From positions 130,969 through 194,968 of the forward strand of contig OZ253489.1 in assembly GCA_965261965.1 (NCBI GenBank): a stretch of DNA of 64,000 nt, given 5' to 3'. This document shows positions 1,784 through 62,975 of the stretch, one piece after another (positions within the stretch are counted from its first letter, which is position 1; every line of letters starts with the position of its first letter). Under the pieces are notes generated by a model. That model searched no databases and had not been told where the DNA came from. It saw nothing but the letters and a program-made list of their open reading frames with translations. The DNA comes from Dehalococcoidia bacterium. GTDB lineage: Bacteria; Chloroflexota; Dehalococcoidia; Lucifugimonadales; JAGWBF01. Position numbers and translations under genes: made by a program.

Positions 1784-1885
1784 AGCGAGTGGCAGAAGAA
1801 GCCAAAAAGGCCAAGGAGGCTCAGCGGGCCTAAAGTGAGTGGCAGAAGAAGCCAAAAAAGCCAAGGAGGCTCAGCGGGCTCAATA
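1744..1885 (+). repeat. 50-bp tandem repeat (about 2.8 copies) made of the fusA 3' end
   Basis: The unit AGAAGAAGCCAAAAAGGCCAAAGAGGCTCAGCGGGCCTAAAGCGAGTGGC starts at 1744, 1794 and 1844. It carries the last codons plus the TAA stop. Copies differ by a few SNPs. Confidence 0.85.
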
Positions 1886-1899
1886 AGAGCATCTTTCGG

Positions 1900-3330
1900 A
1901 TTTCGGGTCCTGGCAAGATCATCGGCCATCCGACGCCCCTGCCGTCATTGCCATGAAAATAGGCAGTGCCGGTGGGGGTCGCGCTCCCCAGAATGACAGG
2001 AGGCGCGCGCTCCTCAGAACGACACCAATAAAGTGTCATTCCGAACGTCCCCTTGTCATTCCGAGCGCCCCCTGTCATTCCGAACGGAGTGAGGAATCTA
2101 AGATCTGGCTCTGACGCCATGTCCATTACTACGACGAGGCTTCGTGTGAGCAGGCATCTTAGATTCTTCGGCGTGCGCGCCTCAGAATGACAGGAAGGGC
2201 ACTCTCCTCATAATGACAGGAGGGAGGCACTCCGAACGCCACGAACCAAGTGTCGTTCCGAACGCCCCCCCGTCATTCCGAATGCCCCCCTGTCATTCCG
2301 AACGGAGTGAGGAATCTAAGATCTGGCTCTGACGCCATGTCCATTACTACGACGAGGCTTCGTGTGAATAGGCATCTTAGATTCTTCGTCGTGCGCGCCT
2401 CAGAATGACAGGAGGGGTGCGCTCCTCAGAACGACAACGATGGGGTGTGTCTCAGAACGACATTATCATAGAGGCATTCCGAACGCGCCCCCTTGTCATT
2501 CCGAACGGAGTGAGGAATCTAAGATCTGGCTCTGACGCCATGTCCATTACTGCGACGAGGCTTCGTGTGAGCGGGCACCTTAGATTCTTCGTCGTGCGCT
2601 CCTCAGAATGACAGGAGGGGGAGGCACTCCGAACGCCACGAACAAAGTGTCATTCCGAACGCCCCCCTGTCATTCCGAACGGAGTGAGGAACCTGAGATC
2701 TGGCTCTGACGCCATGTCCATTACTACGACGAGGCTTCGTGTGAGCGGGCACCTTAGATTCTTCGTCGTGCGCTCCTCAGAATGACAGGAGGGGGAGGCA
2801 CTCCGAACGCCACGAACAAAGTGTCATTCCGAACGCCCCCCTGTCATTCCGAACGGAGTGAGGAATCTGAGATCTGGCTCTGACGCCATGTCCATTACTA
2901 CGACGAGGCTTCGTGTGAGCGGGCACCTTAGATTCTTCGGCGTGCGCGCCTCAGAATGACAGGGGGGGTGCGCTCCTCAGAATGACAATGGATGGCGCGC
3001 TCCTCAGAACGACAACGATGGGGTGTGTGCCTCAGAACTACAAATGGGGGGTGTCTCAGAACGACATTATCATAGAGGCATTCCGAACGTGCCCCCTTGT
3101 CATTCCGAACGGAGTGAGGAATCTAAGATCTGGCTTTGACGCCATGTCCATTACTACGACGAGGCTTCGTGTGAGCGGGCATCTTAGATTCTTCGTCGTG
3201 CGCTCCTCAGAATGACATAAAGAAACTGCCCCTCAGAACGACAGGGAGGGTGGTGTGCCTCAGAATGACAAAGGGGGGCGGGGCGTTCAGAATGACGACT
3301 GTGGGGTGTGCACGTCTTTGCGGGCCGATG
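1900..3330 (+). repeat. Array 1 of the 118-bp GTCATTC...GAATGAC element (family A), six copies plus sub-repeats
   Basis: Six copies of exactly 118 bp: 2074-2191, 2292-2409, 2495-2612, 2669-2786, 2843-2960, 3099-3216. Structure: GTCATTCCGAACGGAGTGAGGAATCTAAGAT-[~50-bp core with TTACTACGACG]-ATCTTAGATTCTTCGTCGTGCGCTCCTCAGAATGAC. Spacers are built from GTCATTCCGAAC.. and ..CTCAGAATGACAG sub-repeats. ORFs called here (2405-2611, 2982-3215) are repeat artefacts. Confidence 0.85.
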
Positions 3331-3484
3331 TTTTCATCGGACTAATGGGGAGGGGCGTTCCTCATTGCACTTGGCGCTCGGGTGAGGGATGGGGGCATTG
3401 ATGCAAGCTTCAAGGACCATCCTCCAGTTTTCGGGGGCGTTATGTTCACTCCTTATTTATCTTCGGAATCGTTGCCGGATCACG

Positions 3485-3514
3485 TTGACACCGAGAAACC
3501 CTCCCATTTATAGT
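3485..3514 (+). promoter_or_regulatory. Candidate sigma70-type promoter for the AAA+/VWA operon
   Basis: TTGACA (3485-3490), 18 nt, TATAGT (3509-3514), about 135 nt upstream of the ATG at 3650. Confidence 0.35.
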
Positions 3515-3649
3515 GCACCGTGCTCCGACCAGACTTTCGGTTCCACATGTGGGTCGTTTAGGTTCGGACAAAGGTATCTCAGACAAGTCTAATGATTGTA
3601 TCCGATCTTCCGGCACCATCGCTTGTGCTAGGATCAAGGAGCTTCTTCT

Positions 3650-7596: not shown

Positions 7597-9314
7597 CCCG
7601 AATCCACCGATGGACAGGGATGGACGGCGTGAGGACAGCGGAAGGGGGTGAGGGAGTTACAGGCGCGATGATCCGGGCTCGAATTTGGGTAGACGGGAGG
7701 TTGGCGGGCGGTCTGCAGGCGCTTTTGGGGGCACCGATGGCGGCCTACAGTGGCTGTGGAGAGCGAGATGGCGGGATAGGACACGGCAAGAGGCGCTCGC
7801 GGACTGGGCTGGCGCGAGTTTGCGGGGACGTTGGGTTGGCTGGCGAGTCAGTGGCGGACGGGCGCCGTCAGGCAGGGAGTGGCAGGGCGCGCAATCGGGC
7901 CAGGGCACGATCGAACTGGGCTTCCCAAGGCCAGCGCTGTGGCAGATGCAGTGTGAGGCGGCGTGCCGAGCGGGTGATCCGTCCGGCCAGGGAGAAGAAC
8001 CGTCGTCTGAGGGTCTTGGTGGTCACGATCTGCTCGCCCAGACCGATGCGCGCTGTCCAGCGGGCGAGGTTGTGGGCCATCACCTGTACCGCCAGCCAGG
8101 CGGCGTTGGCGGCGAAGCGGCCCGAGGGGAGATGGTTCAACCCCACACCGTGCTTGAGGTCTCGGATGGCATTCTCGATCTCGGCGTGGCGGCGATGGTC
8201 GGCCTCCAGTTCGAGCATCTCCCCGTCCCGGTCGGTGATGAAGCCGTGATAGCTGTAGGAGGCGAAGAGGGCCAGCTGGGAACCGGGCGTGGGCTTCACA
8301 CGCCGGACGATGAGCCGCACCGGTGCGGCGTCAGGTTCACTCTGGAACGGAGTGCAGGTGGTCTCGGCCACATCGGCGGCGCCGTCCATCCAGTAGGGAA
8401 TGGGAGTCCAGGCATCCTCTGGTATCGCCTCGATGAGATTGCGCAGGCTCTTGTGCTGGCGGATGGTGATGGAGAAGCGGACATCCATCTTGCGGCAGAC
8501 GGATACCACGCCATGAGTGTAGAACCCGCTGTCGGCCCGTAGCGTGAGTCGTCCGTTGGCCCCGGCGTAGCGCACCCGTCCCACCGTCTCCCGCAGGAAG
8601 TGGGCGGCGCCGCGGGCGGTGTTGGCCCGGCCCTCGCGCAGCCGGGACATCAGCACGTCTCCGGTGCCGGCGGCGATGGCCAGCAGCGGGTGGTAGCCCC
8701 GCTTGCCGGTATAGCCGTGGTGGCGGGCGCCCTCCTTGGCCAGTCCGTAGGTCTCGCAGATGGTGGAATCGAGGTCGATGGTGAACGGCGCGTCGCCGGG
8801 TCCGGCACCGGCCTTCCAGACCCGGGCCAGCAACTCGCGGCTCACCCGGTCCAGTTGGCGGACATGGCCCCACCTGAAGCTGCGCAGGAAGGTCCCCAGG
8901 GTGGAGGGCGCCTTAGCCGTGAAACCGAGCACGCGGGCGGTCCCGCCGGCGCGCAGCACATCGGCGTCGTCGATGCAATCTCCGCCGGCTAGGGCGGAGG
9001 CCACCAGGGTCATCATCTTGTCGCCGGTGTTCGCCCGGCCCGGTGCGCCGCCGAGGTCGAGGTCCTTCCGGAGGAGTTGGGGCAGGCCAAGGCGCAGGGC
9101 GAGGGTGGCGGGAAGGATCAGCCCGGCATTGGCCACCAGGCGGTGATCGTCGAAGGCGATTTGGATGCGGTCGGGGTGGTTACGTGGTAGCATCTATCGG
9201 GTGCTCCTTTTCTGGGACCGGTTTTCTGTTACAAAACCATTATCCCAGATTCAGAGGCGCACCCTTTTGTTTCTTCAGCAGGCCTCCTACACGCCGTCCT
9301 TCGGTGGATTAGGG
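7597..9314 (-). mobile_element. IS1380-family insertion sequence, intact copy
   Basis: Terminal inverted repeats: CCCGAATCCACCGATGG at 7597 and the reverse complement of CCTTCGGTGGATTAGGG ending at 9314. TTAAG is present on both flanks (7592-7596, 9315-9319). A single transposase ORF lies inside. Confidence 0.85.
7868..9193 (-). CDS. IS1380-family DDE transposase
   Basis: 441 aa. The N-terminus MLPRNHPDRIQIAFDDHRLVANAGLILPATLALRLGL is typical of IS1380 transposases (recognised from memory). The region looks visibly GC-richer than its surroundings. Confidence 0.9.
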   Translation of the reverse strand: MLPRNHPDRIQIAFDDHRLVANAGLILPATLALRLGLPQLLRKDLDLGGAPGRANTGDKMMTLVASALAGGDCIDDADVLRAGGTARVLGFTAKAPSTLGTFLRSFRWGHVRQLDRVSRELLARVWKAGAGPGDAPFTIDLDSTICETYGLAKEGARHHGYTGKRGYHPLLAIAAGTGDVLMSRLREGRANTARGAAHFLRETVGRVRYAGANGRLTLRADSGFYTHGVVSVCRKMDVRFSITIRQHKSLRNLIEAIPEDAWTPIPYWMDGAADVAETTCTPFQSEPDAAPVRLIVRRVKPTPGSQLALFASYSYHGFITDRDGEMLELEADHRRHAEIENAIRDLKHGVGLNHLPSGRFAANAAWLAVQVMAHNLARWTARIGLGEQIVTTKTLRRRFFSLAGRITRSARRLTLHLPQRWPWEAQFDRALARLRALPLPA

Positions 9315-10470
9315 TTAAGAGGAGAGTCCGTTGCTTCGAAGAGTCCCCCATGTCGCCGGGATTTTAGATTCCTCACTGCGTTCGGAATGACATAAAGGGG
9401 GCTGATCCTCAGAATGACGGTGGAGAATGGTCATCCCGCCTTCCCCCATTGCCATTCCCCATTCCCCCCTGTCATTCCCGGGAGCGCCTCCCCCCCTGTC
9501 ATTCCGAGGAGCGCCTTCCCCCCCTGTCATTCCGAGGAGCGCACGACGAGGAATCTGAGATGCCTCCTTAAGAGGAGAGTCCGTTGCTTCGAAGAGTCCC
9601 CCATGTCGCCGGGATTTTAGATTCCTCACTACGTTCGGAATGACAGGGGGGGAAGGCAGAATGACAGGGGGGAATTGTCATTCCGAGGCCCCACTGTCAT
9701 TCCGAGGGGCGCCCTCCCCCTCTGTCATTCCGAGGAGCGCACGACGAGGAATCTAAGATGCCTCCTTAAGAGGAGAGTCTGTGGCTTCGAAGAGTCCCCT
9801 ATGTCGCCGGGATTTTAGATTCCTCACTGCGTTCGGAATGACAGGGGGGCACTCGGAATGACAATTCCCCCCTGTCATTCTGCCTTCCCCCCCTGTCATT
9901 CCCAGGAGCCCTTCCCCCCCTGTCATTCCGAGGAGCGCCTCCCCCCTGTCATTCCGAGGAGCGCACGACGAGGAATCTGAGATGCCTCCTAAGAGGAGAG
10001 TCCGTTGCTTCGAAGAGTCCCCCATGTCGCCGGGATTTTAGATTCCTCACTGCGTTCGGAATGACAGGGGGGCACTCGGAATGACAATCCCCCCCTGTCA
10101 TTCTGCCTTCCCCCCCTGTCATTCCCAGGAGCCCTTCCCCCCTGTCATTCCGAGGAGCGCACGACGAGGAATCTAAGATGCCCCTTAAGAGGAGAGTCCG
10201 TTGCTTCGAAGAGTCCCCCATGTCGCCGGGATTTTAGATTCCTCACTGCGTTCGGAATGACAGTGGAGGGGTTCGGAATGACATAAAGGGGGGTGCTTCT
10301 TAGAATGACATAAAGGGGGGGGCTTCTTAGAATGACACAAAGGGAGGGGCTTCTTAGAATGACACAAAGGGAGGGGCTTCTTAGAATGACAATAGTTGGA
10401 GGGGTTCGGAATGACGGTGGGAGAGGGCCCGCGGCGTGACGGTAAGGAAGAGAGGGGGGCCGCAGCATGA
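9315..10470 (-). repeat. Family A array 2, part right of the IS1380 insertion
   Basis: Remainder of the interrupted copy (9320-9391), then copies at 9526-9644, 9724-9842, 9948-10065 and 10144-10261, all in reverse orientation. About five 30-bp CTTCTTAGAATGACA-type sub-repeats follow at 10262-10420. Confidence 0.85.
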
Positions 10471-10538
10471 CAACAGGGGGGAGGGCGACTGGCTGAACGC
10501 CTCAGTACGTCTGAACGGTTATCCACCACCTTTGGTCG

Positions 10539-10565
10539 TTGCATGTACGGGCGAGGTGATATAAT
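10539..10565 (+). promoter_or_regulatory. Candidate promoter with extended -10 for htpX
   Basis: TTGCAT (10539-10544), 15 nt, then TGaTATAAT (TG at 10557-10558, TATAAT at 10560-10565). Confidence 0.4.
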
Positions 10566-10583
10566 GAATGCGGTCTTTCCATT

Positions 10584-10671
10584 CTAGGATCCAGCATAAG
10601 AGGAAGCTGAAATTGAATACCGTCAAGCTAGGATCCGGCATAAGAGGAAGCTGAAATTGAATACCGTCAAG
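10584..10671 (+). repeat. 44-bp tandem duplication of the htpX translation start region
   Basis: CTAGGATCCRGCATAAGAGGAAGCTGAAATTGAATACCGTCAAG occurs twice (10584-10627, 10628-10671). Each copy carries the RBS-like AAGAGGAAG, the TTG start and five codons. Confidence 0.85.
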
Positions 10672-15830: not shown

Positions 15831-16667
15831 TCAGATTGCCAAATCAAATGGCAAGTCGCTGATGTCGCGCAGTCGGCGGCCAGTCACCAGGGTCCCCAAC
15901 AATTCAGCATCCGAATCACTATCCGAGGCGGCGCCGATCAATTCTCTCAGGGCAAAGTGATAGATGCAGTCGATATCGCCTGTACCATAGGCAAGCGATG
16001 CGATTCGTCCGGGCAGGGGTTCTCCTACGACGACCACTATGTGCGGTGTCTTGCCCTTCCGGTTGCGAACAAGGTTCAAGCCCTCAGTACGTGCGTTTTG
16101 CGAGCGGTCGCTGCGAATCGTCCATTTGCAAGAAACACTGGCATGCATGATACCCACTTGCGAATTCGTGCGCCGCAAAGGGGTATGGACTGCCGTTTCG
16201 TCATCTGCCAACAGGACCTGGTTTTCGTTGATCTTGGAGTCGGGGACCGGTTTTCTGCAAATAACAATGTCGGGCTTTACTATGTAGTCGCCGAAGATGG
16301 TCCGCAGTTCCTCATGCTCATCCAATACCCGTCGCAGGTCTGACAGATGTGTGTATTGCTCATAGTCTCGAATGTTTCTTCCCAAAGAGAATTCCCATTC
16401 GCCCGGACGCAAATGAGGTAGAAGGCCAAAAGCATCGCGCAAAAAGTCCCTTGTCGCCGCCTCGAACTGATGGCCCACTGTTTGCCCTGCCAGTTTTTCG
16501 CCTTTTATCTGAATCCCAATTCTGGCAACAATGCCTTTACCAAGTCTGACGCTTGCAGTGCTTCCGCTATCGGCGTTATTCGGAATCCCGGACGTGGTCT
16601 CACGCAATACATCGCGGCAAATCCGGCGATGATAGGCTCGTCGAAGAGTTTCCATTCTGCCAGCCAT
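15831..16667 (-). CDS. Type II restriction endonuclease, PD-(D/E)xK with S-x-K variant (Cfr10I/NgoMIV/Bse634I-like)
   Basis: The long ORF 15831-17117 is trimmed to the ATG at 16667, because the Arg-rich N-terminal extension overlaps the methylase gene. KPDIVI and VSCKWTIRSDRSQN motifs. The ATG overlaps the methylase TAA (TAATG). Confidence 0.7.
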   Translation of the reverse strand: MAGRMETLRRAYHRRICRDVLRETTSGIPNNADSGSTASVRLGKGIVARIGIQIKGEKLAGQTVGHQFEAATRDFLRDAFGLLPHLRPGEWEFSLGRNIRDYEQYTHLSDLRRVLDEHEELRTIFGDYIVKPDIVICRKPVPDSKINENQVLLADDETAVHTPLRRTNSQVGIMHASVSCKWTIRSDRSQNARTEGLNLVRNRKGKTPHIVVVVGEPLPGRIASLAYGTGDIDCIYHFALRELIGAASDSDSDAELLGTLVTGRRLRDISDLPFDLAI

Positions 16668-18028
16668 TACGACTTCACCAGACCGATCACATACTCTTCG
16701 TGCATACGCTCCTCGATCTGCGAGTACCGCAGGTCGCCCCAACGGGCAGGCATCATCCGTTTGTCTCGGTCGAGGCGGCGAACTCCGATTTCTGCGAGGT
16801 CGAAGCCAGCGCTTGCGCCGATGGCGGCAAGCCCCTTGTGCGTCTCTACGTCGACGCCGCGCAGATTCGAGGTCCCGACGACGATTACTGCCGCCTTGCC
16901 TTGCTTCAGTACCCGCCGCATTTCCGCAATCACGCCGGACATCTCGCCGAAATAACGGCGCAAGCTGGCAGCTTTCTTGGCATCTCGTTCTGTCAGTCTT
17001 GACAATGTCTTTTCGCACTGGTCCGGCAGGTTGTTGTACTCTGTCCCGGATGCGCCGTCGTGTCCCAGGTACTGAGCCCGAATTCTGGAAAGGTCGCTGA
17101 TCTTCCAGCCGAACCACACCAGGGAGAACTTATGGGCCCTCATGTAGTCGATGGCGTTGTTGGCGTATGGCGGCGATGTGATGATCAGATCTACGCTTGC
17201 AGGCGGCAGGCCGGTGTCGGCCGCACCGGCCGCGCGAATTTCTGCATCGCGGTGTAGTTCCCCCAAAGCCATCACGTCGGGCCCCTTTAAAGAAGGGGGC
17301 TTGCCGCTGTCATGCGGCCTGCTCTTGCCGAGAGCGGCCACATTCCGCTCCAGCCGTTTCCCAAACTCCACGAACGCTGAGGCCGGCGTCTTCTTGGGGT
17401 CCCTGTGGGGGCGCGTGTGCGCAAGGTCCCGCGCCAGTGAGACTCCGCCCGACTTGGCGATGATGGTCGAAGAAAACACCACGCGGAGAAATTCTCCAGT
17501 CCCTCCTTTGGGCAACGCTTCGATTCGCTGTAGAATGGCCAGCAATTCCAGCTGCTGTTGTGGCAGGAACCAATAGTCAATGAACTCCGCTGTCTTCGCG
17601 TCGAACCGCAATTCGCAGTCCCGTCGCAGCCTGGGGCCGTCCTCCCGATAATCGGTCCAAGCGGCCTTCAGGACACTTCGCCCAGTTTGCAGGGCAGTTG
17701 ACGGGTCGATGGTTGTCAGCTTGGCTGCTGCGATCATTCTTGCCAGAGGGTCGATGTCACAACCAACGGTGCGTCTGCCCAGCCGCACAGCCTCCACGAG
17801 CGTGGTCCCGGAGCCGAGCATCGGGTCGAAGACAACGTCGTTCGGGCTTGAGAGCTGCGAGATCAGGAATTCCGGTAGTTGGGGTGGAAACTTCGCCGGA
17901 AAGGGGTGCCAAGCATGAGAGCCATAGCTGCCGTTCGAGCCGTGAAAATCCAGATTGGCCCGCAATGCTGCCATGCCCGCCGGGTTCTTACCTCCCGCAT
18001 ACCAAAGAGGCAGCACGCCTTGCGTCAT
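16667..18028 (-). CDS. DNA amino-methyltransferase (N4-cytosine or N6-adenine)
   Basis: 453 aa. Motif I is VFDPMLGSGTT and motif IV is IITSPPY, about 200 aa apart, so the target-recognition region probably lies between them. Confidence 0.85.
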   Translation of the reverse strand: MTQGVLPLWYAGGKNPAGMAALRANLDFHGSNGSYGSHAWHPFPAKFPPQLPEFLISQLSSPNDVVFDPMLGSGTTLVEAVRLGRRTVGCDIDPLARMIAAAKLTTIDPSTALQTGRSVLKAAWTDYREDGPRLRRDCELRFDAKTAEFIDYWFLPQQQLELLAILQRIEALPKGGTGEFLRVVFSSTIIAKSGGVSLARDLAHTRPHRDPKKTPASAFVEFGKRLERNVAALGKSRPHDSGKPPSLKGPDVMALGELHRDAEIRAAGAADTGLPPASVDLIITSPPYANNAIDYMRAHKFSLVWFGWKISDLSRIRAQYLGHDGASGTEYNNLPDQCEKTLSRLTERDAKKAASLRRYFGEMSGVIAEMRRVLKQGKAAVIVVGTSNLRGVDVETHKGLAAIGASAGFDLAEIGVRRLDRDKRMMPARWGDLRYSQIEERMHEEYVIGLVKS

Positions 18029-20766: not shown

Positions 20767-20809
20767 GTTGTTACTCCGGTGGTTGGTGTTAATCTCCGCG
20801 CAGACGATA

Positions 20810-20849
20810 TCCTGCAGGAGCAGATGATATCCTGCAGGAATGGTGGTGA
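20810..20849. promoter_or_regulatory. Two tandem 20-bp palindrome-containing boxes upstream of the crotonase gene (candidate operator)
   Basis: GCAGAYGATATCCTGCAGGA occurs twice (20810-20829, 20830-20849). Each box contains the perfect 10-bp palindrome TCCTGCAGGA. They lie 44-83 nt upstream of the GTG at 20766. Confidence 0.3.
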
Positions 20850-20896
20850 GATTATTATTTACAAATCCATTCTAATTGCCGAACAGTATTAGGTCA

Positions 20897-21090
20897 ACGA
20901 AGCTACCGGGGCCACTGCGTAAACGAAGCTACCGGGGCCACTGCGTAAACGAAGCTACCGGGGCCACTATGTAAATGAAGCTTAGCGGGGTCGCTGCGTA
21001 AATGAAGCTTAGTGGGGTCACTGTGTAAACGAAGCTTAGCGGGGTCACTGCGTAAATGAAGCTTAGTGGGGTCACTGTGTAAATGTTCAG
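20897..21090. repeat. 26-bp tandem repeat, about 7 copies
   Basis: AGCTACCGGGGCCACTGCGTAAACGA-type units start at 20901, 20927 and 20953. Three units of one variant are followed by four of a second variant (AGCTTAGYGGGGTCRCTGYGTAAAYGA). There are no unique spacers. Confidence 0.85.
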
Positions 21091-21129
21091 ACTTCAAGGG
21101 GTCAACCTTGAGGGCCTCTTCGAATTATC

Positions 21130-21945
21130 ATCCCGAACGCCGGCTTATCACGCCGAGCCGCCCACTGTAATTCCGAACCCCCTACTGTCATTCCGAACCG
21201 CAGTGAGGAATCTAAAATGCCCCGACCAAAGCCTCGTCCAATACTACGATAAGCCATAGGGTGAGCAGGCATCTTAGATTCTTCGTCGTGCGCTCCTCAG
21301 AATGACAGTGAAGGGGCGCACTCCTCAGAACGACAGTGAAGGGGCGCACTCCTCAGAATGACAGTGAGGAGGGTGCTCCTCAGAATGACAGTGGGGGGCG
21401 CGCTCCTCAGAATGACAGTGAGGAGGGTGCTCCTCAGAATGACAGTGGGGGGCGCACTCCTCAGAATGACAGTGAAGGGGCGCGCTCCTCAGAATGACAG
21501 TGAGGAGGGTGCTCCTCAGAATGACAGTGAAGGAGGGTGCTCCTCAGAATGACGATAAGGGGGCGCTACTCAGAATGAGAATAAGGGGAGGCGCCAGCTG
21601 TAATTCCGAACCCTCCCCCTGTCATTCCGAACCGCAGTGAGGAATCTAAGATGCCCCGACCGAAGCCTAGTCCATTTCTACGACGAACCATAGGGTGAGC
21701 CAGCATCTTAGATTCTTCGTCGTGCGCTCCTCAGAATGACAGTGAGGGGGGCGCGCTCCTCAGAATGACAATAAGGGGAGGCGCCAGCTGTGATTCCGAA
21801 CCCTCTCCCTGTCATTCCGAACCGCAGTGAGGAATCTAATATGCCCCGACCAAAGCCTCGTCCAATACTACGATGAGCCGTCGGGTGAGCAGGCATCTTA
21901 GATTCTTCGTCGTGCGCTCCTCAGAATGACATGGAGGGGAGGGCG
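21130..21945 (+). repeat. Family A array 3
   Basis: Three 120-bp copies (21187-21306, 21621-21740, 21811-21930) and about ten ~31-bp CTCCTCAGAATGACAGTGARGRGGGYGC sub-repeats (21296-21600). Confidence 0.85.
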
Positions 21946-22101
21946 CTCCTCAGAAGGTGGGGTGCGGGGAAACGCGGCGGCCTCAGCTGGTAGCGCCCGG
22001 CCTTGGCTGGGTGGCGCTGCGGGCGCAGATGGGTGGCGGTCGGGCGCAGCGGGGAGGCGCTGCGGGCGCGAGTGGGTGGCGGTGGGGAGGCTGGCTTACC
22101 T

Positions 22102-29390: not shown

Positions 29391-30986
29391 GAGTTTGTCT
29401 CATAGACCGGTGGGCGGGTTGAGTAACACAGGTGTGGGAGCGATGCGCCTCAACAGAGGTTGGCCCGTCCAGTTGCACCGGCCACTTGTCGGCCCCCAGA
29501 AAGGTCGTCTACTCTCTTAGTTCCATGGCGCCTTGACCCAGTCCCAAGGCGCTTGGCCGCTGCGCCATAGCTTGAGCAAGTTATGGGTCGTCCCTGCCAG
29601 CGACCACTCACTCTGTGCAGCGCCCAACCCCCGTCTCATAAACCGTCGGAACCCCTGGCCTTCCTTGACCTGTCCGAACACCGGCTCCACCAGTACACCC
29701 CGCTTCTTGTACAGAGCTCGGCCTCGCTTTGTCAGCAGCTTGCGCTCCATCCTGTCCCTCGGGCTCAGTCCTTTTGGTATACGCCCTCGGGGACACCCCT
29801 TCTCCCATAGCAGCTTCCGCTGTTTCCAATCCTTGGTGGTGGCAATAAGAAGCTCAGGCATCTCTGGCCAGGGGCAAGCCCTGATGTTGGCCTCACTCCA
29901 GTACCCGGCATCGGCCAAGCCCGCTTTGGGCCGGTCCTCTATGCCGGCTGCTTCCAGAGTATGCGCCATGGTTTGGAGCATCGGCTCCAGTTGCTGCACA
30001 TCGTTGGCCTCTTGGGTCACTCCAACGGCTACTATGATCTGCTCCTCGCTCACCACCGCCTGGGCATTGTAGCCCTGCACGTACCCTTGCCTGGTCTTCA
30101 TGATACGACTGTCCGGGTCGGTGGTATTAGCCTTCGCCCCTTCGGTAGGAAGTGGCTCTACCACCTTGGGCTTTCGCCCTCGCTTCTTTTTGCCTGTGAC
30201 ATCTTCTTCTGCCCGCCGTCGCTCCACGTGCTCTTGGACAGCCTTGGCTCCTGCTTCAGCCTCCCGCTGCAGACGTTCCTTGGCTTCCTTCAGGCGCTTG
30301 AGCCGCTCCGTCCGTCCCCCTAGCCCTTCCGGTAGCTCATCCCCTCGCCGGTCGGGACCATAATGGGCATCCTCTTCAGCATCCGTTGCCTTGGCCTCTG
30401 CCAACATGCGCCGCACTTCTTCTTCAATGGCCTGGTGGCTCCGGTTGGTGGCCAGGGCCGCGTTGGCTGCCACCTTCGTCCCATCAAGAGCCACTACCCC
30501 CAACTTCACCAGACCCGCTTCATGGCATAACCTCAGTACCTCTACAAAGAGCTCCTCGAACGCCTCCTCGCGCTCCGCCCTAAAGCGACAGATGGTACGG
30601 AAGTCTGGCTGCCGGTTGGCCGCCACCACCCGGAATCCTACATCTTCCTCCAGAGCACGGGCTATGCGCCTGGAACTGCGTACACCCAGGCAGTAGCCGT
30701 ACAACAGGATGGCCACCATCATCCCCGGATCGTAGGCCGCTGCACCCCATCCATCACTTCGATAGACTGCATAGAACTCCCTCAGATCCATCTGGCCTAC
30801 TGCATCTACAATGAACCAAGCCAAGTGACCCTCACTCAGCCAATCCCTCATGGACGGCGGCATCAAGTAGCTCTGGTCTCGCTCGCAACTCAGAAGGTTA
30901 TAAGCCATAGTGTCCTACCTGCCTGATGTTTCTATGAGCTTACTGCTTCGCCAACCCCGCAGGAAGGGGGTTTATGGGACACGCTC
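29391..30986 (-). mobile_element. IS1182/IS5-like insertion sequence, copy 1 (1596 bp)
   Basis: Imperfect terminal inverted repeats GAGTTTGTCTCATAGACC (left end) and GAGCGTGTCCCATAAACC (reverse complement of the right end). A 4-bp direct repeat CCAT lies on both flanks (29387-29390, 30987-30990). Confidence 0.85.
29517..30908 (-). CDS. IS1182/IS5-family DDE transposase
   Basis: 463 aa. N-terminal DUF772-like region (YDPGMMVAILLYGYCLGVRSSRRI), a central charged coiled segment and a C-terminal DDE region. The family name is from memory. Confidence 0.88.
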   Translation of the reverse strand: MAYNLLSCERDQSYLMPPSMRDWLSEGHLAWFIVDAVGQMDLREFYAVYRSDGWGAAAYDPGMMVAILLYGYCLGVRSSRRIARALEEDVGFRVVAANRQPDFRTICRFRAEREEAFEELFVEVLRLCHEAGLVKLGVVALDGTKVAANAALATNRSHQAIEEEVRRMLAEAKATDAEEDAHYGPDRRGDELPEGLGGRTERLKRLKEAKERLQREAEAGAKAVQEHVERRRAEEDVTGKKKRGRKPKVVEPLPTEGAKANTTDPDSRIMKTRQGYVQGYNAQAVVSEEQIIVAVGVTQEANDVQQLEPMLQTMAHTLEAAGIEDRPKAGLADAGYWSEANIRACPWPEMPELLIATTKDWKQRKLLWEKGCPRGRIPKGLSPRDRMERKLLTKRGRALYKKRGVLVEPVFGQVKEGQGFRRFMRRGLGAAQSEWSLAGTTHNLLKLWRSGQAPWDWVKAPWN

Positions 30987-31095: not shown

Positions 31096-32406
31096 GTGAT
31101 GACCAGTATCCACAAAACAGCAGCTTTCATGATGTTGGCGTTGGCGGGGGCTATGGGTGTGGTTGCTGTAGCATCTGTGGTCGGGTGCGGGACAAACAGC
31201 CGTGGCCCAGATGCTGAGGTGGCGCCTCAAGTAGAACCTGTCGAAACCCGTGGGCTGACACCGGAGGACACCCCGCCAGCCCATGAGGCGACCCCAACCT
31301 TGGGCCGGTTTGCGCCACTGGTCGATCCAGACCCCAACTACCAAGATGCGTTGGATAATGCCCAGTTCCATGACGGTTTCTGGACCCTCACGGATTTCAG
31401 CAGGCATACGGTTCCTTTGCGAGAGATCATGTCAGGCGGCCCGCCTCCTGATGGCATCCCAGCCATCAACGATCCCCAGTTCGTTCCGTTATCTGAAGCT
31501 GACTCTTGGCTGCGAAATGAAGAGCCAGTAGTTGCTATCGAAATCGAAGGTGATGCCAGAGCTTATCCTCTGCAGATACTGATCTATCATGAGATCGTCA
31601 ACGATGTTGTGGGCGGCGTTCCGGTGATGATAACCTTCTGCCCCCTGTGCAACTCAGCTGTCATGTTCGAACGGACCGTGGATGGCGAGGTGCTCAGCTT
31701 CGGGACCACTGGGAACCTGCGAAACAGCGACCTGATAATGTATGACCGCCAGACCCAGTCTTGGTGGCAGCAGATCACCGGCGAAGGGATCGTCGGCCTG
31801 ATGGCCGGCCGCCAGCTGACCTTCCTGCCTGCCTCCATCATTTCTTGGCCGGACTTCAAGGCTGCCTACCCAGATGGAAAGGTGTTGTCGAAAGACACCG
31901 GGTACCGGCGGGACTATGGCATCAACCCCTACCGCGGATACGATAAAGCTGATAAACCTCCCATCTTCTTCGATGGTGTAGTCGACGGCCGCTTGCCTCC
32001 CAAGGAGCGAATTGTTGCGGTGACGCTGAATGATGTCGATGTAGCATTTCCGTTCACCATCTTGAAGGAAGAAAGGGTGGTGACCTACCGAGTAGGCCAA
32101 CGTGACATGGTGGTGTTCTTCCAGGATGGCGCCCAATCAGCTTTGGATTCGGAGCTATTCGGATTCTCCAAGGATGTGGGCTCTACGGGAGTGTTCGATC
32201 CGGTTCTGGAAGGTAGGGAGCTTGGTTTCAGCTATTCGGACGGGCGAATTATCGACGACCAGACGGGCAGCGCCTGGAACATCTTGGGACATGCTGTGGC
32301 TGGAGAGCTCGTCGGCAAAATGCTGACCCAGATCATTCATGGCAACCACTTCTGGTTCGCATGGGCTGCTTTCAAACCCTCAACGATAATCTATCCAGGC
32401 AGATGA
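31096..32406 (+). CDS. DUF3179 domain protein, secreted
   Basis: 436 aa. N-terminal signal/lipobox-like segment (VASVVGCG). PPDGIPAINDPQF and YHEIVND motifs typical of DUF3179. Confidence 0.8.
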   Translation: MMTSIHKTAAFMMLALAGAMGVVAVASVVGCGTNSRGPDAEVAPQVEPVETRGLTPEDTPPAHEATPTLGRFAPLVDPDPNYQDALDNAQFHDGFWTLTDFSRHTVPLREIMSGGPPPDGIPAINDPQFVPLSEADSWLRNEEPVVAIEIEGDARAYPLQILIYHEIVNDVVGGVPVMITFCPLCNSAVMFERTVDGEVLSFGTTGNLRNSDLIMYDRQTQSWWQQITGEGIVGLMAGRQLTFLPASIISWPDFKAAYPDGKVLSKDTGYRRDYGINPYRGYDKADKPPIFFDGVVDGRLPPKERIVAVTLNDVDVAFPFTILKEERVVTYRVGQRDMVVFFQDGAQSALDSELFGFSKDVGSTGVFDPVLEGRELGFSYSDGRIIDDQTGSAWNILGHAVAGELVGKMLTQIIHGNHFWFAWAAFKPSTIIYPGR

Positions 32407-32439
32407 TCTATCCAGGCATCAGCTAAGCCCTGCCGCAAC

Positions 32440-33860
32440 CAGTCATCCTCCATAAACTAAATCTCGAGCGCCTCCCCCCTCCGTCATCCCGCCCTCCCTC
32501 CCCCCCGTCATCCCGCCCGCCCTCCCCCCCGTCATCCCGCCCGCCCTCCTCACTGTCATTCCGAACGCCCTCCTCACTGTCATTCCGAACCTCCCCCGCT
32601 GTCATTCCGAACCGCAGCGAGGAATCTAAAATCCCGGCGACCCACAATGGCCCGTCATAGTAACCAACCAGACATCAGAGCGGCATCTTAGATTCCTCGT
32701 CGTGCGCTCCTCGGAATGACATAAAGAAACTGCTCCTCAGAATGACAATAAAGGAAGGCGCCCCTCAGGACGACAACAAAAGAAGGGCGCTCTTCGGAAT
32801 GACAGTGAGGGATCTCGCCCTCCTTATCGTCATCCCCATTCCGAGGAGTGCCTCCCCCGCTGTCATTCCGAACCGCGGTGAGGAATCTAAAATCCCGGCG
32901 ACCCACAATGGCCCGTCGTAGTAACCAACCAGACATCAGAGCGGCATCTTAGATTCCTCGTCGTGCGCTCCTCGGAATGACAGTAAGGGAGGCGCCCCTC
33001 AGAATGACAGGGCGGAGGCACTCCTCGGAATGACAGTGCAGGAAGGGCGCTCCTCGGAATGACAGTGCAGGAAGGGCGCTCCTCGGAATGACAGTGAGGG
33101 AGGCGCTCCTCGGAATGACAGTGCGGGGAGCTCGCCCTCCTTATCGTCATCCCCATTCCGAGGAGTGCCTCCGCCCTGTCATTCCGAACCTCCCCCGCCG
33201 TCATTCCGAACGGACTCTCTGTCCGTCCGACCCTCCCCTCGCTGTCATTCCGAACCGCGGTGAGGAATCTAAAATCCCGGCGACCCACAATGGCCCGTCG
33301 TAGTAACCAACCAGACATCAAAGCGGCATCTTAGATTCCTCGTCGTGCGCTCCTCGGAATGACATAAAGAAGGTGCTCCGCGGAATGACAGTGAGGGAGG
33401 CGCTCCTCGGAATGACAGTGCAGGGAGGCGCTCGTCGGAATGACAGTGAGGGGAGGCGCTCCTCGGAATGACAGCGAGGGGAGGTGCTCCTCGGAATGAC
33501 AGTGAGGGGAGGCGCTCCTCGGAATGACAGTGCAGGAACGGCACTCCTCGGAATGACAGCGAGGGAGCTCGCCCTCCTTATCGTCATCCCCATTCCGAGG
33601 AGCGCCTCTCCCAATGTCATTCCGAACCTCCCCCCTGTCATTCCGAACGGGCCCCCGTCATTCCGAACCTTCCCCGCTGTCATTCCGAACCGCAGTGAGG
33701 AATCTAAAATCTCCCTCCGATGGCCTGCCCGTTACTACGACGGTCCTTCAGGTGAGCCAGCAGCTTAGATTCCTTGTCGTGCGCGCCTCAGAATGACAGT
33801 AAAGGGAAGGCGGTCCGCAGAATGACGGTGATGGGAGGCACCCCGGAGGATAAAGATAAG
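32440..33860 (+). repeat. Family A array 4
   Basis: Copies at 32601-32720, 32862-32981 and 33244-33363 (core inverted relative to array 1) and at 33679-33797 (core as in array 1). About eight ~31-bp CTCCTCGGAATGACAG sub-repeats lie at 33340-33570. Confidence 0.85.
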
Positions 33861-33937
33861 GGGCGGGCTGTTGGCTGCGTTTCTGGCCGGGTGTGAACAG
33901 GTTACGTCTTGCTAATGTATCCTCAAACCCCTTCGCA

Positions 33938-33965
33938 TTGACTTTATTTTGGATAGATATATACT
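33938..33965 (+). promoter_or_regulatory. Candidate promoter for the second LLM gene
   Basis: TTGACT (33938-33943), 16 nt, TATACT (33960-33965). GAGGAG RBS before the ATG at 34014. Confidence 0.4.
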
Positions 33966-34013
33966 TCCAGTGTCGTACTTGGGACGACTGACCACATACA
34001 GAGGAGTTGGCAT

Positions 34014-49483: not shown

Positions 49484-51200
49484 CCCGAATCCACCGATGG
49501 ACGGGGGGGGGACAGGGGAAGGGGGTAAGGGAGTTACAGGGGCGATGATCCGGGCTCGAATTCGGGTGGACGGGGGGTTGGCGGGCGGTCTGCAGGCGCT
49601 TTGGGGGCAGCGACGTCGGCCTGCGGTGGCTGTGGAGAGCGAGATGGCAGGATAGGCCACGGCAAGAGGCGCTCGCGGACCGGGATGGCGTGAGTTTGGG
49701 GGGCGTTCAGTTGACCGGATGACGGGTCGGTGGCAGAAGGGCGCCGTCAAGCTGGGAGTGGAATGGCTCGCAGCCGGGTCAGGGCGCGACTGAACTGCTC
49801 CTGCCACGGCCAATGCTTGGGAAGATGCAAAGTGAGCCGGGGCGCCGAGCGAGTGAGCCGTCCGGCCAGGGCGAAGACTCGTCGTCTGAGCGTCTTTGTA
49901 GTCGCGATCCGTTCACCCAGGCCGATGCGGGCTGTTGTCCAGCGGGCCAGGTTGTGGGCCATCGCCTGCACCGCCAGCCAGGCGCCGTTGGCGGCGAAGC
50001 GGCCGGACGGCATGTGGCTGAGTCCGACACCGTACTTGAGGTCGCGTATCGCATTTTCGATCTCGGCGCGGCGGCGATGATCAGCCTCCGGTTCGAGCAT
50101 CTCCCCATCGCGGTCGGTGATGAAGCCGTGATGGCTGCAGGTGGCGAAGAGGGCCAACTGGGAACCTGGCGTGGGCTTCACCCGCCGGACGATGAGCCGC
50201 GCCGGCGCGGCATCGGGCTCACTCTGGAAGGGGATATAGGTGGTCTCTGCCACATCGGCGGCGCCGTCCATCCAGCCGTCCATCCAGTGGGGAATCGGCG
50301 TCCAGGCATCTTCAGGTATGGCCTCGATGACATTGTGCAGGCTTTTGTGCTGGCGGATGGCGATGGAGAAGCGGGCATCCATCCTGCGGCAGACGGATGC
50401 CACGCCATGAGCGTAGAAACCGCTGTCGGCCCGCACCGTGATGTCCCCTGGCCCCGGCGTAGCGCACCCGCCCCACCGTCTCAGGCAGGAAGTGGGCGGC
50501 GCCGCGGGCGGTGTTGACGGGGCCCTCGCGCAGCCGGGCCATCAGCACGTCTCCGGCGCTGGCGGCGATAGCCAGCAGTGGGTGATAGCCCCGCTTGCCG
50601 GTGTAACCATGGTGTCGGGCCCCTTCCTTGTCCAGTCCGTAGGTCTCGCAGACGGTGGAATCGAGGTCGATAGTCAAGGGTGCGTCGCCGGGTCCGGCCT
50701 GCCATGCCCGTGCCAGCAGCTCGCGGCTCACCCGGTCCGGTTGGCGGACGTGGCCCCAGCGAAAGCTGCGCAGGAAAGCGCCCAGTGTGGATGGCGCCCT
50801 GACCAGGCAGTCGAGAACACCGGCCGTCCCACCGGCTCGCAGCGCATCGGCGTCGTCGATGCAGTCGCCGCCAGCCAGCGCGGAGGCGACCAGCGTCATT
50901 ATCTTGTCGCCGGTGTTGGCCCGGCCCGGCGCATCACCCAGGTCCAGGCGCTGCTGCACCAGTTGGGAAAGACCGGGGCGCAGGGCCAAGGCGGCTGGGA
51001 GGAGCGGGCCGGCATCGTCCACCAGGCGGTGATCGTCGAAGGCGACTTGGATGCGGTCGAGGTGGTTGCGTGGTAGCATCTATTGGGCGCTCCTTCTCTG
51101 GGGCCGGGTTGCCGTTACAAAACCATTATCCCAGATTCAGAGGAGCGCCCTCTCGCCGCTTTAGAACGCTGACCAGACCCACTCCTTCGGTGGATTCGGG
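49484..51200 (-). mobile_element. IS1380-family insertion sequence, decayed copy
   Basis: It has the same terminal repeats as copy 1 (CCCGAATCCACCGATGG ... CCTTCGGTGGATTCGGG). Flanks are CTAAG and CTAAT. The transposase reading frame is broken. Confidence 0.8.
49747..51079 (-). pseudogene. IS1380-family transposase pseudogene (frameshifted)
   Basis: ORFs 50312-51079 and 49747-50436 together cover the 441-aa protein of copy 1. Relative to copy 1 there is a 2-nt shortfall near 50430-50450 and a 12-nt WMDG duplication. Confidence 0.8.
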
Positions 51201-52941: not shown

Positions 52942-53082
52942 ATGTTCCTCCTCAATTAAGCGCTATCAACCTCAGAACATTCGTGCCGGGCGCCCCGCTA
53001 TGGTGCAAAGCTGAAAGCCTTGGTATTATACCATCGACATTGACGAGGTTCGTTCATCAAGACCGTTTTGGGGAGGTGGCCT

Positions 53083-53685
53083 GTGGCTTCAACCGTTCAA
53101 GTAACTGTGTGGTACGACTACACTTGACCCTTCTGCTATGTCGGTCTGGCAAGACTCGACAAGGTGGCTCAAGCTCATCCTCTGGATGTAGAACGTCTGC
53201 CGTTTCTGCTTTCTCCCAACAAACCGCCGGAGGGTGAACCTCGGCGCCTGTTAGACGGAGAAACCGAAACCGAGCTGTCTCCTGCCGCTCAGGAGCGGGC
53301 TCGGGCAGCGGGCTTGGTTATGCGGAGGCCTGCTTGGTCTCCCAACACCATGCTTGTCCATGAAGCGACGCTGTACACCAAAGAAAAGGGGCAGGATGAC
53401 CGGTTCCACCATGTTGCAGCCAAAGCATACTGGGAGGATGGCGCCGATCTGGCAAACATGGATGTGGTCCAGAGGCTTGCCAATGAATGCGGCTTGGATT
53501 GGGCAGAATTATCAGGGCGTCTGGAATCGGGGCATTACCGTCAGCAGGTGCTGGACACATACGAACAAGCCAAAGCAATTGGTGTCGGTGGCACGCCTAC
53601 TTACAGGATTTCAGGGGAGCTTCTGCCGGGTGACGTTAGCTACGAATCTCTGGAAGAGGCTGTTCAACAAGCTGAATCCAGCTAG
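53083..53685 (+). CDS. DsbA/FrnE-like oxidoreductase, selenocysteine candidate (UGA at 53125-53127)
   Basis: The ORF track begins at GTG 53164. The same frame is open upstream except for one TGA, giving (M)ASTVQVTVWYDYT-U-PFCYVGLARLDKVAQAH. This is the DsbA-family CPxC position. GGAGG lies 6 nt before the GTG at 53083. A bulged 8-bp hairpin at 53140-53160 lies 12 nt after the UGA. Confidence 0.65.
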
Positions 53686-53695
53686 CGGACTGTTT

Positions 53696-53844
53696 TAGGG
53701 AACCTCTGAACAACTCGGCTGAAGCCCGTCATTCCCGCCCCCTGAAGCCCGTCATTCCCGCGAAGGCGGGAACCTCGCCCCTCTGTAGGGACGGGTTTCA
53801 CGTCCATCCTCTGCATCCAAGGGGACTTATTCAGACTATCCTTA
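53696..53844 (-). mobile_element. Family B MITE, copy X2 (reverse orientation)
   Basis: TA-GGGAACCTCTGAACAAC...CTTATTCAGACTATCCT-TA. Two internal GAATGACGGG sub-repeats. Confidence 0.7.
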
Positions 53845-61379: not shown

Positions 61380-62975
61380 GAGTTTGTCTCATAGACCGGT
61401 GGGCGGGTTGAGTAACACAGGTGTGGGAGCGATGCGCCTCAACAGAGGTTGGCCCGTCCAGTTGCACCGGCCACTTGTCGGCCCCCAGAAAGGTCGTCTA
61501 CTCTCTTAGTTCCATGGCGCCTTGACCCAGTCCCAAGGCGCTTGGCCGCTGCGCCATAGCTTGAGCAAGTTATGGGTCGTCCCTGCCAGCGACCACTCAC
61601 TCTGTGCAGTGCCCAACCCCCGTCTCATAAACCGTCGGAACCCCTGGCCTTCCTTGACCTGTCCGAACACCGGCTCCACCAGTACACCCCGCTTCTTGTA
61701 CAGAGCTCGGCCTCGCTTTGTCAGCAGCTTGCGCTCCATCCTGTCCCTCGGGCTCAGTCCTTTTGGTATACGCCCTCGGGGACACCCCTTCTCCCATAGC
61801 AGCTTCCGCTGTTTCCAATCCTTGGTGGTGGCAATAAGAAGCTCAGGCATCTCTGGCCAGGGGCAAGCCCTGATGTTGGCCTCACTCCAGTACCCGGCAT
61901 CGGCCAAGCCCGCTTTGGGCCGGTCCTCTATGCCGGCTGCTTCCAGAGTATGCGCCATGGTTTGGAGCATCGGCTCCAGTTGCTGCACATCGTTGGCCTC
62001 TTGGGTCACTCCAACGGCTACTATGATCTGCTCCTCGCTCACCACCGCCTGGGCATTGTAGCCCTGCACGTACCCTTGCCTGGTCTTCATGATACGACTG
62101 TCCGGGTCGGTGGTATTAGTCTTCGCCTCTTCGGTAGGAAGTGGCTCTACCACCTTGGGCTTTCGCCCTCGCTTCTTTTTGCCTGTGACATCTTCTTCTG
62201 CCCGCCGTCGCTCCACGTGCTCTTGGACAGCCTTGGCTCCTGCTTCAGCCTCCCGCTGCAGACGTTCCTTGGCTTCCTTCAGGCGCTTGAGCCGCTCCGT
62301 CCGTCCCCCTAGCCCTTCCGGTAGCTCATCCCCTCGCCGGTCGGGACCATAATGGGCATCCTCTTCAGCATCCGTTGCCTTGGCCTCTGCCAACATGCGC
62401 CGCACTTCTTCTTCAATGGCCTGGTGGCTCCGGTTGGTGGCCAGGGCCGCGTTGGCTGCCACCTTCGTCCCATCAAGAGCCACTACCCCCAACTTCACCA
62501 GACCCGCTTCATGGCATAACCTCAGTACCTCTACAAAGAGCTCCTCGAACGCCTCCTCGCGCTCCGCCCTAAAGCGACAGATGGTACGGAAGTCTGGCTG
62601 CCGGTTGGCCGCCACCACCCGGAATCCTACATCTTCCTCCAGAGCACGGGCTATGCGCCTGGAACTGCGTACACCCAGGCAGTAGCCGTACAACAGGATG
62701 GCCACCATCATCCCCGGATCGTAGGCCGCTGCACCCCATCCATCACTTCGATAGACTGCATAGAACTCCCTCAGATCCATCTGGCCTACTGCATCTACAA
62801 TGAACCAAGCCAAGTGACCCTCACTCAGCCAATCCCTCATGGACGGCGGCATCAAGTAGCTCTGGTCTCGCTCGCAACTCAGAAGGTTATAAGCCATAGT
62901 GTCCTACCTGCCTGATGTTTCTATGAGCTTACTGCTTCGCCAACCCCGCAGGAAGGGGGTTTATGGGACACGCTC
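61380..62975 (-). mobile_element. IS1182/IS5-like insertion sequence, copy 2 (1596 bp)
   Basis: Collinear with 29391-30986 over its full length. A 4-bp direct repeat ATAG lies on both flanks (61376-61379, 62976-62979). It sits between proW and the substrate-binding gene. Confidence 0.85.
61506..62897 (-). CDS. IS1182/IS5-family DDE transposase
   Basis: 463 aa. It differs from the 29517-30908 product at three residues in the supplied translations (G/E, A/T, A/T). Confidence 0.88.
   Translation of the reverse strand: MAYNLLSCERDQSYLMPPSMRDWLSEGHLAWFIVDAVGQMDLREFYAVYRSDGWGAAAYDPGMMVAILLYGYCLGVRSSRRIARALEEDVGFRVVAANRQPDFRTICRFRAEREEAFEELFVEVLRLCHEAGLVKLGVVALDGTKVAANAALATNRSHQAIEEEVRRMLAEAKATDAEEDAHYGPDRRGDELPEGLGGRTERLKRLKEAKERLQREAEAGAKAVQEHVERRRAEEDVTGKKKRGRKPKVVEPLPTEEAKTNTTDPDSRIMKTRQGYVQGYNAQAVVSEEQIIVAVGVTQEANDVQQLEPMLQTMAHTLEAAGIEDRPKAGLADAGYWSEANIRACPWPEMPELLIATTKDWKQRKLLWEKGCPRGRIPKGLSPRDRMERKLLTKRGRALYKKRGVLVEPVFGQVKEGQGFRRFMRRGLGTAQSEWSLAGTTHNLLKLWRSGQAPWDWVKAPWN

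Follow-up and report, generated by a model that had tools for sequence, protein, structure and literature searches.

A DsbA/FrnE-like oxidoreductase gene with a predicted selenocysteine in its active site and a SECIS-like hairpin in its coding sequence in a Dehalococcoidia genome

The DsbA-like selenoproteins were described as a Sargasso Sea selenoprotein family ("DsbA-like protein", COG2761, motif UxxC) of nine sequences with a predicted SECIS (Zhang, Fomenko & Gladyshev 2005, PMC1088965). Subsequent work added members from Anaeromyxobacter, Desulfovibrio, and Desulfotomaculum (PMC1794560), the family was known from 41 organisms by 2016 (PMC5029168), and a 2026 review carries the entry "DsbA-like protein form 1, PF01323, UxxC" (PMC13188914). 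The family is marked by the PF01323 domain, by selenocysteine (Sec, U) as the first residue of UxxC, and by a stem-loop with a G in the small apical loop, and the gene presented here was like it in all three. FrnE, the namesake of COG2761, is a cytoplasmic disulfide oxidoreductase/isomerase with several PDB structures (5cnw, 5co3, 5e59, and 5xwh). Literature searches turned up nothing specific linking FrnE to selenoproteins, or SAR202 to selenocysteine. The minimal element bound by the elongation factor SelB features a bulged U and a small apical loop with G's.

The gene was located on the plus strand at 53083-53685 of the window, which is the whole stretch of 64,000 nucleotides that was analysed and to which all positions refer. 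It contained 200 codons, from the start codon GTG (53083-53085) to the stop codon TAG (53683-53685), and translation of the window showed that this frame was interrupted by a single TGA at 53125-53127. A Shine-Dalgarno-like GGAGG was read from the sequence at 53072-53076, 6 nt 5' of the GTG. The frame, the TGA, and the spacing of the GGAGG reproduced the coordinates of the original prediction, which had also stated that the listed ORF (GTG 53164 to 53685, plus strand) lacks the active site; this ORF of the gene callers encoded 173 aa, was identical to database protein P0001, and contained no CxxC. The read-through product was (M)ASTVQVTVWYDYT-U-PFCYVGLARLDKV..., with V or M as the first residue, and U15, C18, and C136 were its only Cys or Sec residues. 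The predicted Sec at residue 15 replaces the first, nucleophilic Cys of CxxC, and the resolving Cys18 of UxxC was encoded by TGC at 53134-53136. The gene product is very probably a cytoplasmic thiol-disulfide oxidoreductase of the DsbA/FrnE type, 200 residues long, with Sec as the first residue of U15-P-F-C18.

With U changed to C, the product matched the Pfam PF01323 DSBA profile from 1 to 191 of 191 positions over residues 6-195 (E 1e-29), and its score of 104.2 bits against a gathering cut-off of 25.6 made it a full-length DSBA member. Since the whole profile was matched, the 27 residues gained by read-through were exactly the missing part of the domain. The nearest solved structure was FrnE of Deinococcus radiodurans (PDB 5cnw, E 4e-18). 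Its alignment placed "vtvwydytCPFCYvG" over "vdiwsdiaCPWCYiG" with U on the first Cys of CPWC, so the UGA was assigned to the first active-site Cys position, and in the Cys orthologues P0004, P0027, and P0058 the residue opposite U was likewise the first Cys, there of CP[FW]C. The original prediction had placed U on the first Cys of CPxC and had proposed aligning the read-through product to DsbA/FrnE members as a check; both alignments agreed with that placement.

An AlphaFold model was built for the Cys orthologue P0004, which is 62% identical to the window protein. The model had a pLDDT of 94.2, with C17-P-F-C20 lying between a strand (7-13) and a helix (18-31), and a Foldseek search with it returned FrnE, Streptomyces SCO1869, a kappa-class GST, and HCCA isomerase as top matches (TM 0.70-0.84). 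The model and the Foldseek matches showed a thioredoxin fold with an inserted helical domain, and the model and the FrnE alignment both put the redox motif behind strand 1, at the start of helix 1. G170 and P172 of the motif GTPT were invariant in alignment A1, as in a conserved Pro loop that faces the active site, and P172 is presumably in the cis form. Only 14 residues preceded U, with strand 1 beginning at about residue 5, so there was no room for a signal peptide. By its sequence, the protein is assigned to the cytoplasmic FrnE-like branch and not to periplasmic DsbA.

FrnE was the best match both in sequence (residues 4-180 against 11-200) and in structure (TM 0.74-0.83, P0004 model). The two proteins shared the context W-x-D-x-x-C-P-W-C-Y-I-G and had no signal peptide. 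Identity was about 24-27%, and FrnE uses Cys where the window protein has the predicted Sec. FrnE contains 260 aa, including a C-terminal extension with Cys239 (5cp1 is the C239S mutant), whereas the window protein stops at residue 200 and therefore has no such C-terminal Cys tail. The tail of FrnE presumably carries a CxxxxC motif. Membership of the Rcas_1661 family of thioredoxin-like (seleno)lipoproteins (NCBIfam NF041057) was rejected, as the match was confined to the C-terminal 93 residues and its 36.7 bits missed the equivalog cut-off of 190 bits. Among the NCBIfam selenoprotein models, none covered this clade. Judged by the family descriptions, the window gene carries every sequence-level feature of the DsbA-like UxxC family and is classed with it on that basis. 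The published DsbA-like sequences AACY01178397 and NIP15863.1 may be either orthologues from the Dehalococcoidia clade or independent Cys-to-Sec conversions elsewhere in PF01323.

The function of the window protein as a thiol-disulfide oxidoreductase is predicted from homology only. By the known bacterial Sec pathway, SelB-GTP loaded with Sec-tRNA(Sec) would bind the mRNA hairpin (the bacterial SECIS), compete with release factor 2 for the UGA in the A site of the ribosome, and insert Sec there. The protein would alternate between two states, one with a selenolate and a thiol and the other with a selenenylsulfide (Se-S) bond to Cys18, and this cycle would reduce or isomerise disulfides of cytoplasmic substrates. 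Sec would have a lower pKa than Cys and exchange faster.

Of the 131 relatives found by a protein search, nearly all were annotated with 145-181 aa and covered 71-88% of the query; three were full length and read ...VW[QY]DYTCP[FW]CYV.... In a search of 1.8 billion cluster representatives, the relatives formed a tight, mostly truncated clade within a large set of full-length Cys homologues with 28-40% identity and the context [DS]-[YF]-[VI]-C-P-W-C-Y-[VI]-G-L. The genome scan yielded 74 orthologous loci (41-77% identity) in metagenome-assembled genomes of Dehalococcoidia/Chloroflexota/SAR202, many of them closed long-read chromosomes. The codon aligned to 53125 was TGA at 73 of these loci and TGT at the remaining one (L046), predicted Sec thus being almost fixed in the Dehalococcoidia clade. 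Paralogue pairs were present in two genomes (L031/L063 and L036/L070), with TGA in both copies of each pair. A Sec/Cys pair was therefore found at the functional site, formed by the 73 TGA codons, the single TGT, and the Cys orthologues P0004, P0027, and P0058.

The peptide 5' of the TGA was conserved as VTVW-x-DY-[TI], followed by U-P[FW]C, and varied mainly at third codon positions. Entropy over the nine codons before the TGA was three-periodic (0.50, 0.32, and 1.16 for the first, second, and third codon positions, respectively), and downstream of the TGA the third position had 0.87 compared with 0.21 and 0.37 for the others, which demonstrated coding conservation on either side of the UGA. 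In the codon of Cys18, columns T10 and G11 were invariant and C12 nearly so among 53 distinct aligned sequences. A start codon with a Shine-Dalgarno-like motif was present 12-24 codons 5' of the TGA in nearly all loci. Most loci begin with ATG; GTG or TTG serves in some others, among them the window, L001, and L002. The closest orthologues, L001 and L002, had GTG 14 codons 5' of the TGA together with a Shine-Dalgarno-like motif, while most other loci had ATG with such a motif 16 codons before it.

These loci bear on whether the true start is instead GTG 53164, in which case the product would be a DsbA-domain protein of 173 aa lacking the redox site, and the upstream frame would be a chance occurrence or a decayed remnant. 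Such a start matches the ORF listing, the public annotation, and more than 100 database homologues at 145-181 aa. However, the annotated starts of the homologues vary (145, 173, and 180 aa), falling at the first ATG/GTG after the TGA, and the DNA of 73 of the 74 loci retains the TGA, the open frame ahead of it, and the peptide VTVWxDY[TI]-U-P[FW]C, with the start codon and Shine-Dalgarno-like motif 12-24 codons ahead of the TGA. A thioredoxin fold deprived of strand 1 and the CxxC turn would also be incomplete, and a start at 53164 was considered very improbable. Close homologues beginning at its equivalent, which the original prediction had named as counter-evidence, exist only on paper as entries of 145-181 aa; their DNA keeps the upstream frame and the TGA.

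TGA differs from TGC and TGT by one base only, so that a Cys codon miscalled in sequencing or assembly, or mutated in a pseudogene, might also account for the interruption. The recurrence of TGA at 73 loci in separate species-level genomes, many of which were closed from long reads, speaks against this, as does the gene itself, which was otherwise intact and under purifying selection; the probability of such an error or pseudogene is negligible. Because the TGA, the upstream coding constraint, and the starts are shared across the orthologous loci, the readings as a pseudogene, as a sequencing error, or as a gene starting at 53164 were for practical purposes excluded.

The SECIS-like hairpin GTCGGTCT-GGCA-AGAC(U)CGAC was located within the coding sequence at 53140-53160 on the plus strand. 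It consisted of 8 bp with a bulged U at 53156 and an apical loop GGCA at 53148-53151, and the distance from the UGA was 12 nt to the stem and 20 nt to the loop. The original prediction had described an 8-bp hairpin 12 nt downstream with a bulged U and a loop starting with GG, and this element was recovered within the MFE structure. RNAfold gave -20.5 kcal/mol compared with -15.7 kcal/mol for dinucleotide shuffles; at z = -1.8, the stability of the window hairpin taken alone was a modest signal. Like the SECIS of the E. coli fdhF type, the hairpin was part of the ORF itself and stood roughly 11-12 nt 3' of the UGA. Its bulged U was on the 3' arm, unlike that of the fdhF SECIS, which is on the 5' arm, and binding of SelB to the window hairpin is predicted. 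The geometry (12 nt, 20 nt, and a small loop opening with G) fitted the bacterial SECIS consensus cited in PMC1088965. Rfam searches returned no SECIS family, either for the whole window at gathering thresholds or for 53050-53250 at E <= 10, where the sole match was a chance lncRNA with 11 bits.

Alignment of the hairpin region included 53 distinct sequences and was gap-free over 42 nt from the TGA. When the window structure was imposed on the alignment, 84% of cells were standard pairs, compared with 28-48% when the 3' partner was slid by 1-3 columns. Pair 21-30, which unites the synonymous third positions of Gly GGY and Arg AGR, was C-G in 48 sequences, U-A in 3 (window, L001, and L002), G-C in 1, and U-G in 1. 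The upper stem CC/GG was replaced by GG/CC in L056, with the amino acids changed too. The bulged U shifted or vanished in other subfamilies, some of which paired in a shifted register without a bulge. Loop G24 was invariant and G25 was present in at least 90% of the 53 sequences. The sequences thus show what is expected of a SECIS, a stem-loop directly 3' of the UGA whose small apical loop carries G.

Codon choice was the most telling signal, as it differed within the hairpin from that elsewhere in the same genes. Arg +9 was AGG/AGA in 40 of 52 sequences (16% of Arg codons elsewhere), Leu +10 was CTC in 28 of 38 (15% elsewhere), and Leu +7 was CTG in all 52 (60% elsewhere), so that the first loop base stays G. 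The rarest Arg codon, AGA (2% of Arg codons), was used by three sequences (window, L001, and L002), each of which had GGT at Gly +6. The Leu codon was followed by G in almost every Sec form, whether the next residue was A, G, V, E, or D, and by the base A in the Cys form L046, where that residue is Ile. Synonymous recoding gave a mean z of -1.44 over 51 distinct sequences, and for 22 of the 51 no more than 5% of the recodings folded equally well, with the caveat that synonymous recodings still reach about -10 kcal/mol.

As recodings still fold and the peptide CYVGLxR[LV]D was found in distant Cys homologues too, the hairpin is in part a by-product of the peptide. An origin solely from the peptide was rejected, being partly true, but with synonymous-codon biases exceeding what the peptide explains. 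The pattern at synonymous sites argues that the hairpin is maintained by selection for pairing, and the SECIS appears to have evolved by refinement of a peptide context that already favoured it. Conservation of the hairpin at orthologous loci, a check suggested with the original prediction, was seen as pairing in register, compensatory changes, and selection at synonymous sites. Taken with the alignment of U to the active-site Cys and the TGA at 73 of 74 loci, the conserved hairpin supports the original interpretation of the UGA as a Sec codon served by a SECIS.

The three Cys forms retained a weaker hairpin with a 6-nt loop. The Cys-containing loci L046, L078, and L079 had CGG in place of AGG at the hairpin Arg codon, which widened the loop to 6 nt, and L046 additionally lacked the second loop G (Ile ATT). 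The pattern at these three loci (n = 3) fits a relaxation of the SECIS after a conversion of Sec to Cys.

The UGA might alternatively be decoded as an amino acid other than Sec, either because a near-cognate tRNA for Trp, Cys, or Arg reads through it or because of reassignment in this lineage. The Sec machinery was not found in the 64-kb window: Pfam scans of 39 long window ORFs detected no SelA, SelB, or SelD, and a tRNA search of the window and 60 related loci gave no tRNA, hence no tRNA-Sec. The GTPase at 2-1783 was tried as a SelB candidate and rejected, as the Pfam scan identified it as EF-G. The position would also tolerate Cys, as shown by TGT in one orthologue. Against such decoding, TGA ended 7 of the 34 Pfam-supported window genes (TAG 19, TAA 8, and TGA 7), so UGA has not been reassigned, and a selected downstream hairpin with loop G's at SECIS spacing would be superfluous for plain read-through. 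A UGA/Cys pair at the catalytic redox Cys is a selenoprotein signature, the family is catalogued as UxxC, and the class is documented as rich in Sec: BSepDB credits two Dehalococcoidia MAGs, with 49 and 46 selenoproteins, with a place among the most selenoprotein-rich bacteria (PMC13326102). Decoding as anything other than Sec was accordingly rated as highly unlikely. The window had a G+C content of 57%, with TAG unusually dominant as a stop codon and TGA relatively rare; this bias may be linked to the frequent use of UGA as a Sec codon in the lineage.

The original prediction had also counted a second redox-site UGA in the window, and this was confirmed in a UGSC family (seleno)protein gene at 23282-22692 on the minus strand. 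Its TGA (22961-22959) lay at the Sec position of the family, in the motif AIAD-U-GSC, and the product with U changed to C matched the NCBIfam equivalog NF041046 with 131.4 bits against a cut-off of 125 bits. A hairpin CGUGCA-GUG-UGCACG began 13 nt after this UGA. Together with the selenoprotein-rich Dehalococcoidia MAGs, the gene lends indirect support to the use of Sec in this genome. The gene was overlooked by the ORF listing because the TGA splits it. It shares with the DsbA-like gene the genome and the predicted recoding device, but it belongs to an unrelated, distantly GrdB-like protein family with the motif U-G-S-C.

With Sec decoding as the preferred reading, the 173-aa ORF and the shortened database relatives are annotation artefacts without an active site. 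The orthologues are named in GenBank as 'DsbA family protein' or 'thioredoxin domain-containing protein' with 176-181 aa, and more than 100 database relatives share the loss of the active site with the Dehalococcoidia/Chloroflexota GenBank entries. The shortening is systematic because no NCBIfam selenoprotein model exists for the clade; adding the 27 N-terminal residues back gives a complete U-P-F-C oxidoreductase. As the family has been known since 2005 and the gene is a new member of it, the result is mainly an annotation correction and represents neither a new mechanism nor a new protein family. It adds evidence that marine/subsurface Dehalococcoidia invest heavily in selenium-based thiol redox chemistry, and the 74 loci provide a well-sampled set on the upkeep of a SECIS inside a conserved coding helix.

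A further proposal, which is tentative and rather doubtful, is that the Dehalococcoidia/SAR202 proteins form a distinct FrnE-like subfamily in which Sec is essentially fixed (73 of 74 loci, including two paralogous lineages that occur side by side in certain genomes), which has no C-terminal Cys tail, and whose SECIS is built on the helix-1 peptide CYVGLxRLD with codons predisposed to pair. The missing FrnE-like Cys tail would imply a different recycling partner. If the proposal were true, the subfamily would be a clean natural case of a Cys codon context turning Sec-competent, and it would mark a blind spot of annotation pipelines, as no NCBIfam selenoprotein model covers the clade.

The neighbourhood was compared at 75 loci, where the neighbours included a luciferase-like monooxygenase (31), an Abhydrolase_3 hydrolase (28), and a DAO-type FAD oxidoreductase (26). 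It was conserved within subfamilies only, and at the 75 loci no thioredoxin reductase or other obvious redox partner was linked to the gene and no family-wide partner was present.

Short repeats of the type 'gtcattcccgcgaaggcgggaac' crowded the intergenic regions at about 1800-3600, 9200-10600, 20800-22000, 32400-34000, and 53690-53800, with one repeat pair directly 3' of the stop codon of the DsbA-like gene. Their six-frame translations recurred as CHSE.., VIPN.., and FGMT.., and the repeats look like REP/MITE-like elements. Two transposase ORFs on the minus strand (29517-30908 and 61506-62897) had an equal length of 463 aa, the domains DUF772 and DDE_Tnp_1_6, and near-identical Pfam scores, and are probably two copies of one IS. 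A DDE_Tnp_1_4 transposase was present at 7868-9193 and 49747-51079, both on the minus strand; one copy was intact and the second, split into two ORFs, is probably a disrupted IS. The window also contained a DUF3179 (PF11376) protein at 31096-32406 on the plus strand, which matched the whole profile and had no internal TGA. DUF3179 is listed with the selenoprotein forms UxxC/T in the 2026 review (PMC13188914), and the window copy is probably a Cys or Thr form. On the minus strand, an ORF for an NgoMIV-type restriction endonuclease (15831-17117) shared about 450 nt with an N6/N4 DNA methylase ORF (16667-18028) that runs in a different frame, and the pair at 15831-18028 looks like a type II restriction-modification module with provisional gene boundaries.
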